Source: Promethearchaeota archaeon (lineage in GTDB: Archaea; Asgardarchaeota; Lokiarchaeia; Sigyniarchaeales; SOKP01). From it: a DNA stretch of 18,430 bases. Shown here piece by piece: positions 11,140-15,917 of the stretch (within the stretch, counting starts at the first letter, position 1; each line of letters begins with the position of its first letter). The stretch is taken from assembly GCA_030603385.1 (NCBI GenBank), contig JAUVXW010000047.1, forward strand, positions 1 to 18,430. The letters run 5' to 3'. The notes under the pieces were generated by a model. The model was not told the DNA's origin and made no database searches. It was given only the letters and a program-made list of their open reading frames with translations. The translations under genes and the position numbers were made by a program.

Positions 11140-11177
11140 CATTACTTATTAATAGTTTGTGTTGTGAACAATTTTAC

Positions 11178-11996
11178 ATGCCACAAGAAAATAGAAAGTT
11201 CACTACTATTGGACAGATTGATGCTACAGGCGTAAGGGGGCCTCATGAGAAAGAATTAGAAGATATTAGTAATGCTAAATTCTCTATCTTCATAAATGTT
11301 GATTTAAAAGCCCTTGAGGCTATCATTAATAATGATTTAGGGGGAATAATTGAAAACATTGGTTTCAATGAGGATTGGACTATTACTATTGAAATGTTTC
11401 CTGAAGTTAACATTCATATGGCATATTCTTATTTTGGTGATGAATTTGGAGATGGTATTGAAGCAGGATTTAGGTTTTATTTCTCAGGAAGGTATGTTAC
11501 TTGGGTACCTGGTGAGGACAGTGCAACATTTATCGATATTGTTATGGATTTTATTAAGAGAAAGCTAAAGGGAGAAGAACCATTTGAAAAAAATTATAAC
11601 TCAAAAACAGATTTGATGCAAAAAGTATTATTACAAAGAGGGAAACCATTCAAATTTTTACAAGAAAAAGATCAGGAAAAACTTGAAAGTTTTCTAGGAG
11701 CTAAAGTATGGAAAACTGTTAATAGTTGGCGAATTAAAAAAGAAATATTTCCAGAAATCTTCACAGAAATTATGTGGGATGAAGAGAATGGTTTAGATAT
11801 AAAATTCCATGGTGAAAAATTAGCAAAAAACTTAGGGAGCTATCATGCAGAATTTATTGGTATATTTGTTTTAAATCATATTCTTCGATATATTACTGTG
11901 CACAATCTAGAGAAGGAATTGCCTGATATTTGCTATATTATGTTCTCTCGATACTATACAAAAAATATTGGAAAATGGGATCACAGGACAAGATAA
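11178..11996 (+). CDS. Hypothetical protein with two tandem DUF3786-like repeats
   Basis: First repeat LGG...EDW.....FPEV.I......GDEF......F.F.......PGED resembles DUF3786. Second repeat LGA.....W......FPEIFTEIMWDEE...I.F. ATG at 11178 preferred over the TTG at 11157. Confidence 0.55.
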   Translation: MPQENRKFTTIGQIDATGVRGPHEKELEDISNAKFSIFINVDLKALEAIINNDLGGIIENIGFNEDWTITIEMFPEVNIHMAYSYFGDEFGDGIEAGFRFYFSGRYVTWVPGEDSATFIDIVMDFIKRKLKGEEPFEKNYNSKTDLMQKVLLQRGKPFKFLQEKDQEKLESFLGAKVWKTVNSWRIKKEIFPEIFTEIMWDEENGLDIKFHGEKLAKNLGSYHAEFIGIFVLNHILRYITVHNLEKELPDICYIMFSRYYTKNIGKWDHRTR

Positions 11997-12012: not shown

Positions 12013-12573
12013 TTATATCGCTGTCCAAAGTTGAGCTCTCCCTTTTTTTTCCGCACGTTTGATTTTTTTAGAATTCTCTAAATCAGACATAACCTTCCAA
12101 ATTTGAGAGTTGCTTAATTTAAAGTATCGTCTTAATTCTGGAGTTGACATTTTGGTATCTGTTAATAAATTTGGAATCAATCTTTTTATTTCCTCAACAG
12201 TGTTTTCATCAGAATCTTTAGGTACTTCAGCTTCAGGTTTTTCTATTATTTCCATCTCTGTAATAATTCTAGATGCAACCTTATTCAATTGTTTAATATT
12301 ATCATCCAGATTTTGAGGTTTCATAAATAAACAGCACAACTCGAGATCTCTTGGAAAAGCTACTATATAGAAGTTATCATATAAGATAGCTCTAGGTTTT
12401 TTCCCTGATGCGTTTCCACCTCGAAACGCTAGATAAAAATTCATTGCAAAATCATCTAATTTTACCAAATCTTTCGTTTTGTTATATTCCTTTTTCCATT
12501 TAAGAAAAGGGCCATCAATCATATCAAATCCAATTAAAGCAGCCCCAAATAATTCCTGTTCTTTAAAATTCAT
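12013..12573 (-). CDS. Putative uDENN/longin domain fused to a C-terminal winged helix-turn-helix
   Basis: N-terminus LFGAALIGFDMIDGPFLKW with a beta-beta-alpha-beta-beta-beta-alpha pattern, an acidic linker, then EEIKRLIPNLLTDTKMSTPELRRYFKLSNSQIWKVMSDLENSKKIKRAEKKGRAQLWTAI (wHTH pattern). The start overlaps the GTPase stop (ATGA at 12570-12573). Confidence 0.6.
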   Translation of the reverse strand: MNFKEQELFGAALIGFDMIDGPFLKWKKEYNKTKDLVKLDDFAMNFYLAFRGGNASGKKPRAILYDNFYIVAFPRDLELCCLFMKPQNLDDNIKQLNKVASRIITEMEIIEKPEAEVPKDSDENTVEEIKRLIPNLLTDTKMSTPELRRYFKLSNSQIWKVMSDLENSKKIKRAEKKGRAQLWTAI

Positions 12574-13091
12574 TTCTTTAATCCCCTCCTAATTGCGATT
12601 TTTTCTAATTCATTTTTTATTATATTCATTAGTTTTATTCTTTCTGCTGGATCTATAGCAGCTAATCCATATGTTTTCACATGTAGAAGATCCTCAACTC
12701 TTTTAGCATCCATTCGACCATCCTGCAAATCCTGCTTATTTGCTATTGCTATAATAGGGCATTCTTTACCTATAAAGTGATACGCATAATTAATCAATTC
12801 TCTCGAGTTTAGCACATTTCTAGGTGTTGAGTCTGTTACTACAAAAATAATATCAGATCCGAGCAAATAATCTTTTGAATAAGCCCTCAAATAACTGCTC
12901 TGGCCTCCTAAGTCCCATAATCTTAAATAATAATCATTAAACTTTATAGACTTTAAATCTAATCCATGTGTTGGAATATAAAATCTATCTAATATATTTT
13001 CTGACAGAAGTTTCACTATGGTAGTTTTACCCACGGCTGGGGAACCTATGAGAGTTATTTTCACCAATTTTTCTATTTCTGAACTTAACAT
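12570..13091 (-). CDS. Ras-superfamily small GTPase (Arf-like, with Rab-like features)
   Basis: G1 GSPAVGKTT, G2 YIPTHG, G3 WDLGGQ, G4 ANKQD and G5-like LAA. 173 aa with no Gly2 myristoylation site and no C-terminal Cys prenylation motif. Confidence 0.93.
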   Translation of the reverse strand: MLSSEIEKLVKITLIGSPAVGKTTIVKLLSENILDRFYIPTHGLDLKSIKFNDYYLRLWDLGGQSSYLRAYSKDYLLGSDIIFVVTDSTPRNVLNSRELINYAYHFIGKECPIIAIANKQDLQDGRMDAKRVEDLLHVKTYGLAAIDPAERIKLMNIIKNELEKIAIRRGLKK

Positions 13092-13216
13092 AGTAGTAAT
13101 AATACTAAAAATGAGTTATTAAGAAACAATGATTTAAAGAAAAATATGAATCTGGATAATATCGACGTATTACCAACTAGTTTCAAATATTATTGTTCCA
13201 TAAAGGTGTAAAAACA

Positions 13217-13942
13217 CTATTTTTGTTTTAAAAAGAGTTGTCTCATCCATTTTGGAAGAATGAATCCCCCATACCAAAATAATGCGCTCACAATCAATAA
13301 TAACCTTGTAAATACTACTGATATTTCATCCAATGGTATTGAAGAGTCCAATAAAGCACCTACTAAAAAAGTAGCATAAGCTACGATTAACAATCTTCCT
13401 TTAAGTTTAACTTCAGGATCATCAGATTTCAAGGATAACCGAGCAAATAATAAACCAGTAAAGACAACTATTAAAACAAAAACTAGTAGAAATATCATTA
13501 TGAAAGCTTTGTAGCGAACGTCAACAGGAGGATTTAATGTGCCAATTAAACTAGGATTTAGGAAAAGCAAACTAAAGAAAATGATTTCAAATACTATACC
13601 AACTAAAGTAAATATTAATAATATTAATTTACGTTTTTCAGTAAATAAAAATTCTGTAAACGCTAATAACCAAAGGGCAATCGCTAGAGGAACAAATATA
13701 TTTCCTATGAGAAAATAAACACTTGATGTTAATCCCACTCCATTGCTTAGTGATACTAAAAAGGATAAACTAGAAGGCCACCACGGCTCAGATATGAAAA
13801 TCCAGGTAGCTCCTACTAAAAAATAAATTTTCTCTTTATATTTGAAATACTTAGATAGTATTAGTAAACCAACAAATAAAGAAATGGCGACAAAAATGAA
13901 GCTAAAAATCCCACTTATAATATCAAACGGTTCTAATGACAT
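13217..13942 (-). CDS. Stand-alone seven-transmembrane protein (receptor-like)
   Basis: Seven hydrophobic segments at about aa 6-30, 39-64, 74-99, 106-128, 146-167, 184-202 and 207-229. Basic loops follow TM1, TM3, TM5 and TM7. No soluble output domain. Confidence 0.7.
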   Translation of the reverse strand: MSLEPFDIISGIFSFIFVAISLFVGLLILSKYFKYKEKIYFLVGATWIFISEPWWPSSLSFLVSLSNGVGLTSSVYFLIGNIFVPLAIALWLLAFTEFLFTEKRKLILLIFTLVGIVFEIIFFSLLFLNPSLIGTLNPPVDVRYKAFIMIFLLVFVLIVVFTGLLFARLSLKSDDPEVKLKGRLLIVAYATFLVGALLDSSIPLDEISVVFTRLLLIVSALFWYGGFILPKWMRQLFLKQK

Positions 13943-14030: not shown

Positions 14031-15917
14031 TTAGATATTATAAAGAAAAAATAATAATATAAGCGAAAAAAATGTAGGTATTATTAAACTAAATGTTAAT
14101 AAGCTCTGTGAAACTCTAATACCTTCTTTAAGGGTATCAATAATAGCATTAAAGTATCGCGGATTACCCCAAATCTTAACCTTACGTTCTATAGAGTCAT
14201 TATAATAAAACTCAACGGGTTCTATATTATCTTCTGCTTCTTGGATTAAAATTTCTAATTTTTCTAAAATTTCATCGATTTTTATTTTGTCTCCAATAGG
14301 GGAATAACCTCTGGCTGAAAATTGTCTTGCTACAGTATGAGAATCAGAAGTAGTAATTTCTCCTCTTTCTATTCCCCTGTTTTGTAACATATTTAGGACA
14401 TAAGACCGAATATCTATGAACGCATTATTCCCATCAAAATGAATTAAAGCTGTTGTCTGATCAGTATTGGAATTTTGAAATAAATGGACAACTATGCCAC
14501 CAAAACCTATTCCATCTTTTTCTGAGTAATTTTTAAATGCACCTTTTGCAACCCCATATAGCATCGGAACCTTTTGAGAATTTTGAACTTTTTTACTTTC
14601 AATATAGTTTTGGGTTACATTAAATAAATCTTGAGCTTCAATCGAATCCCTTTTGATTAATATCTCATTGCCAATAATGGCATTATGAGAATCAACAATA
14701 ATGATATCTTTAAATCCCTTTGAAATAACATATTTTCTTATCCGATCTCCTACACTTGATTCAATATCGTCAGAAGGAAGCGGATGTCTTGTAATAAATA
14801 TAATGGGGGTATTACCAACTTCAATTCCAATGAGTTTAGCAGAATTTGAGATCTTTCTCGTAAAGTCTTTGACTTCCTTAACCCAATTTATATTTGGGTT
14901 ATTATTAATAGCATCAATATCTTGTTTTATTCTCTTCATAATGATTTCAACATACCCTTGAGATGTTAAATTTTGAGTATGATCATTAGTCGTGTGATAT
15001 ACAGTGGTTCCTGGGATGTGCTCAAATGCTTTATATATATGTTCAGGTAAGTCAGAAGAACCACATGTCTTAAATGGACCAAAATGAATATGTGGAACAA
15101 CGAATAAGCCTTTAATTTCTTTTGAAGATGTACTTCGGATAACTAAATACTGAATTCTGACATTAGATTTTATCCCAACCCTCTCAAAGTAACTTTCTAT
15201 AAGCTCATCATTCCCCTCTGTCATCATAGAAAGAATAAAAGCTCTAATAAAAGGATAACCACTCATACCGGTTGCTTCCCTATATATATTGCTCACTTGA
15301 AACAAACCTCTTCGATATGGGAATGCAAACAACATAGCGCATGCAACAAAAAAGATTATAGCTCTTACAAAGAAATCACTATCAAACTGTCCAATATAGA
15401 GGCTATAGAGGGTAATAGCAGTTAAGGGTTGTAAGAGTGATAAAATCATGTATCCAGGACGACCTACAGTAGTAAATGAAAAATAAATGACAAAAGCAAC
15501 AATATAAGATATAATCGATCCCATTATAAAAAATACTTCTTGATACCAGATGTTTTGGAGTAAAATGGCGACTATTTGGCCAAAAATAAAAGTAACTTCA
15601 ATCATAGCACTAAAATATACGTTCATTTGGATTGACCATCCATTTGGAGGGGCTCGCAATATAGGTGCTTTTTTTGAATAAAATAACATAGAAAAACTAG
15701 CACCTAAACCTGAGAGCAGCAAAAATAAACCTACAAACCTAAAGAAATGTAAAAAATCTAAATCATTTATTAGAATATAATTTAATATCAACGACAATAG
15801 TCCAAACACAATTGGAGTTCCAAGAAAAGTAGAATAAGCTAACTTTCTTGACTGGAAAAATTCCATATATGAAATTATTCCGGGGATTTGACGAGAGGGT
15901 GTCTTTTTAATAAACAT
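14031..15917 (-). CDS. DUF2070 family membrane protein (predicted neutral-ceramidase-like lipid hydrolase)
   Basis: About six N-terminal TM helices, then a soluble domain with PHIHFGPF, H..NDH, VDSHN, FDGNN and TSDSH, and a C-terminal TM helix. Confidence 0.85.
   Translation of the reverse strand: MFIKKTPSRQIPGIISYMEFFQSRKLAYSTFLGTPIVFGLLSLILNYILINDLDFLHFFRFVGLFLLLSGLGASFSMLFYSKKAPILRAPPNGWSIQMNVYFSAMIEVTFIFGQIVAILLQNIWYQEVFFIMGSIISYIVAFVIYFSFTTVGRPGYMILSLLQPLTAITLYSLYIGQFDSDFFVRAIIFFVACAMLFAFPYRRGLFQVSNIYREATGMSGYPFIRAFILSMMTEGNDELIESYFERVGIKSNVRIQYLVIRSTSSKEIKGLFVVPHIHFGPFKTCGSSDLPEHIYKAFEHIPGTTVYHTTNDHTQNLTSQGYVEIIMKRIKQDIDAINNNPNINWVKEVKDFTRKISNSAKLIGIEVGNTPIIFITRHPLPSDDIESSVGDRIRKYVISKGFKDIIIVDSHNAIIGNEILIKRDSIEAQDLFNVTQNYIESKKVQNSQKVPMLYGVAKGAFKNYSEKDGIGFGGIVVHLFQNSNTDQTTALIHFDGNNAFIDIRSYVLNMLQNRGIERGEITTSDSHTVARQFSARGYSPIGDKIKIDEILEKLEILIQEAEDNIEPVEFYYNDSIERKVKIWGNPRYFNAIIDTLKEGIRVSQSLLTFSLIIPTFFSLILLFFLYNI

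Follow-up and report, generated by a model that had tools for sequence, protein, structure and literature searches.

A conserved operon pairs an Arf-family GTPase with a longin-winged-helix protein in Lokiarchaeia and carries a candidate operator whose element also stands upstream of ftsZ genes

Small GTPases are placed beside a docking platform in several described systems. The N-terminal longin-like domain (SRX) of the two-domain protein SR-alpha binds the GTP form of SR-beta, an Arf-related GTPase. In MglA/MglB and other prokaryotic GTPase-Roadblock/LC7 operons, a small Ras-superfamily GTPase is co-transcribed with a neighboring platform of the roadblock/longin superfamily, and MglB acts as a GTPase-activating protein (GAP) at the cell poles, with no link to DNA. 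The Group 3 MglA systems (Wuichet and Sogaard-Andersen 2014, PMC4316618) contain a GTPase conserved near a two-domain protein that ends in a predicted winged helix-turn-helix (wHTH) domain, and a role in transcription regulation has been proposed for them on purely computational grounds. Longin and wHTH domains are combined in NPRL2 and NPRL3 of GATOR1 (PMC3521125). More generally, roadblock and longin domains are described as docking platforms of small GTPases (PMC10933270 and PMC3747258, the latter listing SRX among them). Asgard genomes encode dozens of eukaryote-like small GTPases and many longin and roadblock proteins; because the two are rarely encoded together, most of the GTPases have no known matching regulator (PMC10933270). 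Here, we describe a locus in an 18,430-nucleotide (nt) stretch (the window) of contig JAUVXW010000047.1, which belongs to a 3.9-Mb metagenome-assembled genome of a Promethearchaeota (Lokiarchaeia-type) archaeon with about 30% G+C. Three consecutive genes on its minus strand encode a seven-transmembrane (7TM) protein, a small GTPase, and a longin-wHTH protein. An earlier sequence-only reading had presented them as a signaling module of a receptor, a GTPase, and a regulator; rederivation of the open reading frames (ORFs) bore out its gene order, coordinates, and descriptions, and our comparison indicated that the functional unit is an operon of two genes, GTPase and longin-wHTH, and not of three.

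The longin-wHTH gene is present as a single copy in 38 of 41 related genomes. An orthologous GTPase gene lies directly upstream of it in all 12 loci compared from other families of the order, and the two genes are likewise adjacent at every one of 10 loci drawn from seven further genera of its own family. The pair recurs in distant metagenomic relatives at about 30% identity (P0007 and P0008); in P0009, the partner gene is preceded by an overlapping ORF fragment. The GTPase shares 41 to 47% identity with its orthologs in other families versus 34 to 36% with its best in-genome paralogs, among some 40 GTPase-like matches in the source genome. In the window, the genes are joined by an ATGA overlap at positions 12570 to 12573, as the sequence-only reading had noted, and the Shine-Dalgarno-like run AGGAGGGGA lies 12 to 20 nt upstream of the overlap. 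The corresponding junction in other lineages is either overlapping or separated by at most 49 nt, as judged from locus coordinates.

A profile search of 250 Asgard genomes recovered the full longin-wHTH protein in families f1, f2, and f5, and the GTPase-longin pair in families f5, f12, f13, and f19 (GTPase E values of 1e-48 to 1e-56). In f12, f13, and f19, the longin domain occurs without a wHTH and is still preceded by the orthologous GTPase. Its C terminus in f13 and f19 is a helix-hairpin-helix (HhH)-like region with a GLGxKR hairpin (IMS_HHH, a weak match at E 0.07 to 0.14), and in f12 it is a poly-Arg tail of about 10 arginines; these could be alternative nucleic-acid-binding ends. No conserved third partner was found outside the genus, where the flanking genes vary (TPR protein, orotidine 5'-monophosphate decarboxylase, HAD hydrolase, MetW, and GvpD/KaiC-like ATPase). 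These comparisons of gene content and order show a single-copy orthologous unit held together across Lokiarchaeia and beyond, and they strongly support the link between GTPase and longin-wHTH protein that the sequence-only reading had drawn. According to Tran et al. 2024 (PMC10933270), GTPase genes of MK-D1 (Prometheoarchaeum) do not as a rule share operons with genes for roadblock or longin proteins, which makes the present pair unusually assignable.

Could the two genes be mere co-transcribed neighbors whose products do not interact directly, for example a ligand-sensing wHTH repressor beside a GTPase that acts elsewhere? Folds of the longin, roadblock, and profilin kind have relatives among PAS-like folds that bind ligands (PMC3521125), the partner could have a pocket lined by its invariant GFD..GP and F.GG motifs, and binding between GTPase and partner is a prediction. 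However, gene order and a tight junction have been kept over order-, class-, and phylum-level divergence while the surroundings changed, and the core of GTPase and longin domain persists where the C-terminal domain has been replaced or lost. Longin and roadblock domains are, moreover, recurrent partners of small GTPases (PMC10933270 and PMC3747258). We thus consider the chance that these genes are unconnected neighbors to be very small.

The GTPase belongs to the Arf family, matching the Pfam Arf profile at 6.8e-19 (68.4 bits; cutoff, 22.3). Its motifs are intact, in agreement with the sequence-only reading, and invariant in 16 orthologs: G1 is GSPAVGKT, the switch I threonine is T41, G3 is WDLGGQ with the catalytic Gln, and G4 is NKQD. 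In a profile search of the Protein Data Bank (PDB), its best solved relatives were Arl3, Arl2, and Arf1, and the matches also included 8oul, 8ouk, and 8oun. "Arf GTPase" is the deposited name of two of these entries and "GTP-binding protein" that of the third; we take all three to be Asgard Arf structures. The protein begins MLSSEIEKL and so carries Leu rather than Gly at residue 2, and the stretch before its first strand is only about 10 residues long. Lacking Gly2 and a long N-terminal helix, it is probably a soluble Arf-family protein; the myristoylation and N-terminal amphipathic helix feature is missing from many Asgard Arfs (Vargova et al. 2025, PMC11914678). A G-alpha identity was rejected, as the Pfam G-alpha profile gave 22.9 bits, under its cutoff of 48.8, and the analogy to signaling from a G-protein-coupled receptor (GPCR) to a G protein, as drawn in the sequence-only reading, fails on the GTPase side.

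For the partner, an AlphaFold2 (AF2) model of the 186-residue protein was built on 18 orthologs, with a mean predicted local distance difference test score (pLDDT) of 74. The model agrees with the two-domain longin and wHTH architecture that had been read from the sequence, the longin call being of moderate confidence. The N-terminal domain is predicted to have the topology beta-beta-alpha-beta-beta-beta-alpha with no N-terminal helix (strands at residues 8 to 17, 23 to 29, 62 to 64, 69 to 75, and 78 to 84; helices at 39 to 50 and 89 to 108), with pLDDT values of 55 to 79. Its Foldseek matches, weak at E 7e-4 to 9e-3 because the query was the two-domain model, were to LAMTOR3/MP1, TRAPP Bet5/Trs23, AP-3 sigma, Mon1-Ccz1, and Prometheoarchaeum Roadblock2. 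Across phylum-wide relatives, F16, D17, G21, P22, Y47, F50, G53, P60, and F68 are invariant. No invariant Arg was found in the longin domain, either among these relatives or in the 18-ortholog alignment: position 51 is R, K, Q, N, or M, and position 75 is R, K, or H (the latter from the 18-ortholog alignment). An arginine-finger GAP of the NPRL2, FLCN, or SMCR8 type was therefore rejected as unlikely, and a role as effector or platform fits better. The linker that follows is acidic and predicted to be disordered, its net charge averaging -5.6 over 12 to 21 residues in the 18 orthologs.

The C-terminal domain is modeled as a canonical winged helix, alpha1-beta1-alpha2-alpha3-beta2-beta3. It matched solved archaeal and bacterial regulators with Z scores of 9.5 to 8.0 and a root mean square deviation (rmsd) of 1.7 to 2.4 A over 58 to 63 residues, including PH1932, NolR, HlyU, MarR, ArsR/SmtB, and IclR regulators, together with Z-alpha domains; winged-helix domains of cullin, APC2, ESCRT-II, and Rpa2 stand in the same list at Z 7.8 to 8.7. 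The domain carries a mean net charge of +3.3, and the wing residues R173, K176, and R179 are invariant. Subthreshold Pfam matches to HTH_27 or HTH_5 were seen in 4 of 18 close orthologs, and the distant orthologs L056, P0007, P0008, and P0009 passed HTH_DeoR (27 to 35 bits; cutoff, 21). HTH_11 was passed by L056, P0008, and P0009, and HTH_5 (ArsR) by P0009. A sequence-profile search of the PDB with the partner gave nothing significant, the best match being an Lrs14-like regulator at E 0.095, and a comparison with the NPR2 and NPR3 families found no sequence match. We also looked for longer, fused forms of the partner and saw none, a negative that carries little weight. Among 1.84 billion proteins, the family comprises 32 representatives at 50% identity; public records label them hypothetical, with one "biotin operon repressor," and no description of a longin-wHTH family was found in the literature.

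The 125 bp between the 7TM stop codon and the GTPase start had been noted in the sequence-only reading as a gap with TATA-like sequence, and both the size and the description were correct (Table 1). The stretch contains a box resembling a TATA box with a B recognition element (BRE), AGATTCATATT, and a bipartite element, GTAATAC-N3-GATATTATC-CAG, which spans -82 to -61 relative to the GTPase ATG. The element can be taken either for a near-palindrome or for a pair of TAWTAYC-like half-sites with a spacing of 11 bp. In archaea, transcription ends at oligo-T tracts, and a run of at least four to five Ts occupies the place directly after the 7TM stop in about 9 of the 12 aligned genus orthologs that span it, by our own count.

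Metatranscriptome contigs were available from one study (three runs) on a strain about 96% identical to the source. They stop matching the window at 13101 to 13121, which places their ends about 10 to 31 nt upstream of the GTPase ATG in the three runs; the longest reaches about 13122 when 21 diverged letters past 13101 are counted. One contig of 1,251 nt spans both the GTPase and the longin-wHTH gene, and its end falls about 31 nt before the GTPase start codon. With contig 5' ends near 13121, AGATTCATATT, centered about 26 nt farther upstream, sits where a TATA box is expected. The hint is weak, since the start of a transcript cannot be proved from contigs. A 68-nt contig from two RNA runs (window positions 13081 to 13121) enters the 5' region of the GTPase gene and folds back on its own reverse complement; it looks like an assembly artifact of the end of a read pile-up and fits an RNA 5' end near 13121. 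No contig covered the 7TM gene, but absence from contigs proves nothing and was not used.

Table 1. Positions of the features discussed, given for the window unless a locus is named
Feature	Position	Strand	Basis	Reading
7TM protein gene	13942..13217	-	ORF, 241 aa	Neighbor outside the conserved module
T5 tract directly after 7TM stop	13210..13214	-	Sequence	Terminator-like oligo-T signal
Bipartite cis-element GTAATAC-N3-GATATTATC-CAG	13152..13173	-	Nearly invariant genus block	Candidate operator
TATA/BRE-like box AGATTCATATT	13143..13153	-	Invariant in 13 genus orthologs	Putative promoter element
Apparent RNA contig 5' end	13121..13122	-	Metatranscriptome contigs	About 30 to 31 nt upstream of GTPase ATG
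Arf-family small GTPase gene	13091..12570	-	ORF, 173 aa	
ATGA stop/start overlap and AGGAGGGGA Shine-Dalgarno-like run	12570..12590	-	Sequence	Putative translational-coupling junction
Longin-wHTH protein gene	12573..12013	-	ORF, 186 aa	
Longin-type domain, aa 1-108	12250..12573	-	AF2 topology, Foldseek matches, invariant residues	
Acidic disordered linker, aa 109-124	12202..12249	-	pLDDT <50 at residues 110-121	
wHTH domain, aa 125-186, and stop codon	12013..12201	-	AF2 fold, structural matches	
Longin partners with HhH-like or poly-Arg ends	L057:2847-3416, L058:3026-3607, L059:1343-1933, L060:2987-3382			

The bipartite element was then followed beyond the genus with a weight matrix made from sites of genus g1 only. 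Among the intergenic windows of each locus, the matrix ranked the 130 nt upstream of the GTPase first at 15 of 19 out-of-genus loci (2.7 expected). The element scores 10 to 16 bits in 11 of those loci, in which the best control window reaches at most 5, and in three distant loci (L027, L028, and L056) the top match of the whole locus falls about 80 nt upstream of the GTPase start. The operon site is also the strongest matrix match in the source genome, though it is itself one of the 17 training sites. Conservation of this stretch shows that the GTPase/longin-wHTH operon has a putative promoter region of its own, separate from the 7TM gene, and the element within it is a candidate operator that the wHTH domain may bind. 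The second-best matrix site in the genome, C36:60309, was rejected as a target: it is a palindrome between two convergent genes and therefore probably a hairpin.

A matrix made from the operon's own sites also singled out ftsZ genes. It ranked the 130 nt upstream of ftsZ-B first at all 11 loci, from six genera (2.3 expected), with scores of 6 to 15 bits versus at most 4.3 for the controls, and it ranked the ftsZ-A upstream window first at 10 of 16 loci (4.7 expected). In the source genome, the ftsZ-B site is GTATTATCTTCATATTAC (G000:C34:186842-186859), 55 nt upstream of the ATG, and it is followed by a second repeat, ATATTAT-N4-GATAT, and then by a TATA-like box. Within the genus the ftsZ-B element is conserved, and five further genera have related sites (loci L111 and L117 to L122). 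By matrix rank and position, then, the element defined on the operon is shown to stand upstream of ftsZ genes as well. An exact GTAWTAY-N4-ATATTAY match was also seen in a divergent intergenic region (L109, G000:C27:15358-15375). The two flanking ORFs, which encode 156 and 162 aa and lie about 90 nt away, have no Pfam family; the site could be one more target of this regulator.

On balance, we consider it probable that the operon encodes a GTPase-gated regulator, in which the GTPase docks on the longin domain and the element is recognized by the wHTH domain. By analogy with the roadblock/longin platforms of MglA, SR-beta, Rag, and Rab, docking would depend on the nucleotide bound, and the longin domain would be an effector or platform, not a GAP with an arginine finger. 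With the wHTH domain on the conserved bipartite element, the nucleotide state of the GTPase would gate DNA binding. The regulator would then control its own operon and probably ftsZ along with it. A bolder version, in which the Asgard Arf GTPase gates a transcription factor directly through the fused longin domain, autoregulates the operon, and controls ftsZ through the shared element, with an inserted 7TM sensor perhaps feeding in where one is present (genera g1 and g15), appears doubtful to us as a whole.

Several observations weigh against a GTPase-gated regulator. Genome-wide, matches to the element occur at chance level (70 versus 70 expected for the matrix and 6 versus 5.2 expected for the regular expression); what speaks for a regulon is therefore where the sites lie and how well they are conserved, and not any enrichment. 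The related genomes are not independent samples. The window's own longin-wHTH protein matched no Pfam or NCBIfam family (Pfam E up to 0.1 alone and up to 1 within alignment A1), and the longin call combines a medium-confidence model with Foldseek E values of about 1e-3. Physical interaction between GTPase and longin domain is argued from gene linkage and analogy; a predicted complex of the GTPase, GTP, and Mg with longin residues 1 to 112 scored 0.13 against a mark of 0.32, a result that gave no verdict and was used neither way. The element also lies upstream of the f19 pairs, whose partner has no wHTH, so that element and wHTH do not strictly covary and another regulator could bind. Finally, winged helices can mediate contacts between proteins as well; examples are those of NPRL2/3, ESCRT-II, and cullins, some of which are present in our structural list.

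The last two points lead to the principal alternative, that the partner is a GTPase regulator or adaptor whose winged helix is a protein-protein module, while a separate factor of the cell-cycle type binds the element and co-regulates the operon with ftsZ. NPRL2/3 provide a precedent, as their N-terminal longin domain is combined with C-terminal wHTH domains not known to bind DNA (PMC3521125), and sites before both the f19 pairs and ftsZ fit a separate regulator, as the cullin, APC2, ESCRT-II, and Rpa2 matches fit a contact module. However, the top structural matches of the domain and the Pfam families passed by distant orthologs (HTH_DeoR, ArsR, and HTH_11) are DNA-binding regulators, the wing has invariant basic residues and the domain is positively charged, and the partner matches neither the NPR2 nor the NPR3 family in sequence. 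Furthermore, the flanking genes differ between lineages, yet the element stays with the operon. We therefore regard the adaptor explanation as rather unlikely and retain the GTPase-gated regulator as the working model.

The 7TM gene shows a different distribution. It adjoins the GTPase solely in g1 and g15, which belong to one family. All 14 g1 loci compared have it next to the pair in the same orientation, and g15 carries two 7TM paralogs in tandem upstream of the operon (L072:1239-2856). The g15 locus also holds two to three copies of orf279, a local duplication around the operon on its downstream side. Beside the pair, no 7TM gene was found in the loci of the other six of the eight genera of the family (g12, g13, g14, g16, g17, and g18) or in those of families f2, f3, f4, f5, f12, f13, and f19. 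In g14 and g16, the block RsmB-orf279-pair-DUF2070 is kept without it, DUF2070 being directly upstream of the GTPase, and in lineages beyond g1 and g14 to g16 the upstream genes are unrelated and often divergent. Adjacent in g1 and g15 alone and missing from the same block in sister genera, the 7TM gene is thus shown by these gene orders to be a lineage-specific insertion between DUF2070 and the operon and not a conserved component.

The 7TM protein itself is a stand-alone bundle. Its AF2 model (pLDDT, 90.5; predicted template modeling [TM] score, 0.85) has seven transmembrane helices and a short C-terminal amphipathic helix with no soluble domain, as expected from the earlier description of a protein without an output domain; by our own reading of its charged residues under the positive-inside rule, the N terminus would be outside and the C terminus inside. 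The nearest named structural matches, in the ESM Atlas, are N-terminal sensor modules of histidine kinases and GGDEF cyclases (TM scores of 0.64 to 0.69). They carry HisKA_7TM (PF16927). A language-model lead toward such modules scored 0.87. The protein did not match the HisKA_7TM family in Pfam, and neither Pfam nor NCBIfam gave it a family; 7TMR-DISM_7TM reached E 0.12 in 3 of 16 paralogs. Comparison with GPCRs gave E values of about 1e-3, TM scores of 0.4 to 0.55, and an rmsd of 6 to 9 A with Foldseek, and Z scores of 9 to 11 with an rmsd of 4 to 5 A with VIA-align, below its helical-bundle background of about 13. The gene belongs to a multicopy paralog family with one to seven matches per genome. 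One paralog, 47% identical (L032, G000:C55:42650-43405), has a TAA at the second aligned codon; its start is probably the next Met, and the gene need not be broken.

The sequence-only reading proposed that this protein could sense at the membrane and switch the Arf-like GTPase and that the GTPase in turn acts on the longin-wHTH protein, a minimal circuit from receptor through G protein to transcription. The bundle is real and free of an output domain, its resemblances to kinase and cyclase sensor modules and its GPCR-like helix arrangement suit a sensor, it stands in the same orientation next to the pair in every g1 locus compared and in duplicate in g15, and prokaryotic systems of membrane sensor, roadblock protein, and small GTPase exist in the actinobacterial conservon (PMC4316618). 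The adjacency is not independent evidence, because the whole RsmB-orf279-pair-DUF2070 block is syntenic there. Against the circuit, a T tract and a conserved promoter region separate the 7TM gene from a GTPase that is not G-alpha, and a small GTPase occurs within about 4 kb at only 1 of 14 loci of other 7TM family members, which is chance level for about 40 GTPase genes in 3.9 Mb. Failure of the gene to stay beside the GTPase in related genomes had been put forward at the outset as the first result to speak against the module, and outside g1 and g15 it does not stay. Hence, we give the receptor circuit little chance: of the earlier interpretation, the link between GTPase and longin-wHTH protein stands, whereas the 7TM receptor link and the GPCR-like reading in three parts fall away, and the attractive idea of an archaeal path from GPCR to G protein is removed as unsupported.

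Two further genes flank the locus. Converging on the longin-wHTH gene is orf279, an ORF of 279 aa without a Pfam family (11157-11996, plus strand), which is retained beside that gene in most f1 loci examined, though not in g13 and g17, and not in other families. The 1,251-nt RNA contig passes the longin-wHTH stop into the 3' end of orf279, and the convergent transcripts may therefore overlap. On the other side, beyond the 7TM gene, lies a DUF2070 membrane protein gene (14031-15917, minus strand; 628 aa; Pfam, 7e-85).

The operon is a fixed single-copy pair with an output domain, a conserved DNA element, and a candidate target in ftsZ, and as such it offers a tractable entry to what an Asgard Arf-like GTPase does. 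If the proposed gating and the control of ftsZ are true, the prokaryotes most closely related to eukaryotes would have a eukaryote-type GTPase switch connected to both transcription and cell division.

Set beside the known systems, the pair is a new variant on the theme of a GTPase with a roadblock/longin partner, and none of MglA/MglB, Group 3 MglA, NPRL2/3, and SRX/SR-beta is a family match. The actinobacterial conservon (CvnA-D) and eukaryotic GPCR/G-protein signaling, which combine a membrane sensor with roadblock protein and GTPase or a 7TM protein with G-alpha, resemble the receptor circuit discussed above; unlike them, the locus does not conserve its 7TM gene with the pair, has no histidine kinase, and encodes a GTPase below the G-alpha cutoff. 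Unlike MglA, whose G3 motif lacks the conserved Asp (PMC4316618), the GTPase is of the Arf type and keeps this Asp in WDLGGQ, along with NKQD; unlike MglB, the partner has a longin topology without N-terminal helix and an added C-terminal wHTH domain. NPRL2/NPRL3, FLCN, and SMCR8 differ from the partner, which is much smaller (186 residues and one winged helix) and has no invariant finger Arg, and the winged helix of its distant orthologs, unlike that of NPRL2/NPRL3, matches DNA-binding HTH families. In contrast to SR-alpha/SR-beta, there is neither an NG domain of the signal recognition particle receptor nor a membrane anchor on the GTPase, and the output is a wHTH domain. The Group 3 MglA systems are bacterial and of the MglA type, with separate MglB genes and a wHTH protein whose N-terminal domain is receiver-like, whereas here the docking fold and the wHTH domain are fused in one protein beside an Arf-like, Asgard-specific GTPase.

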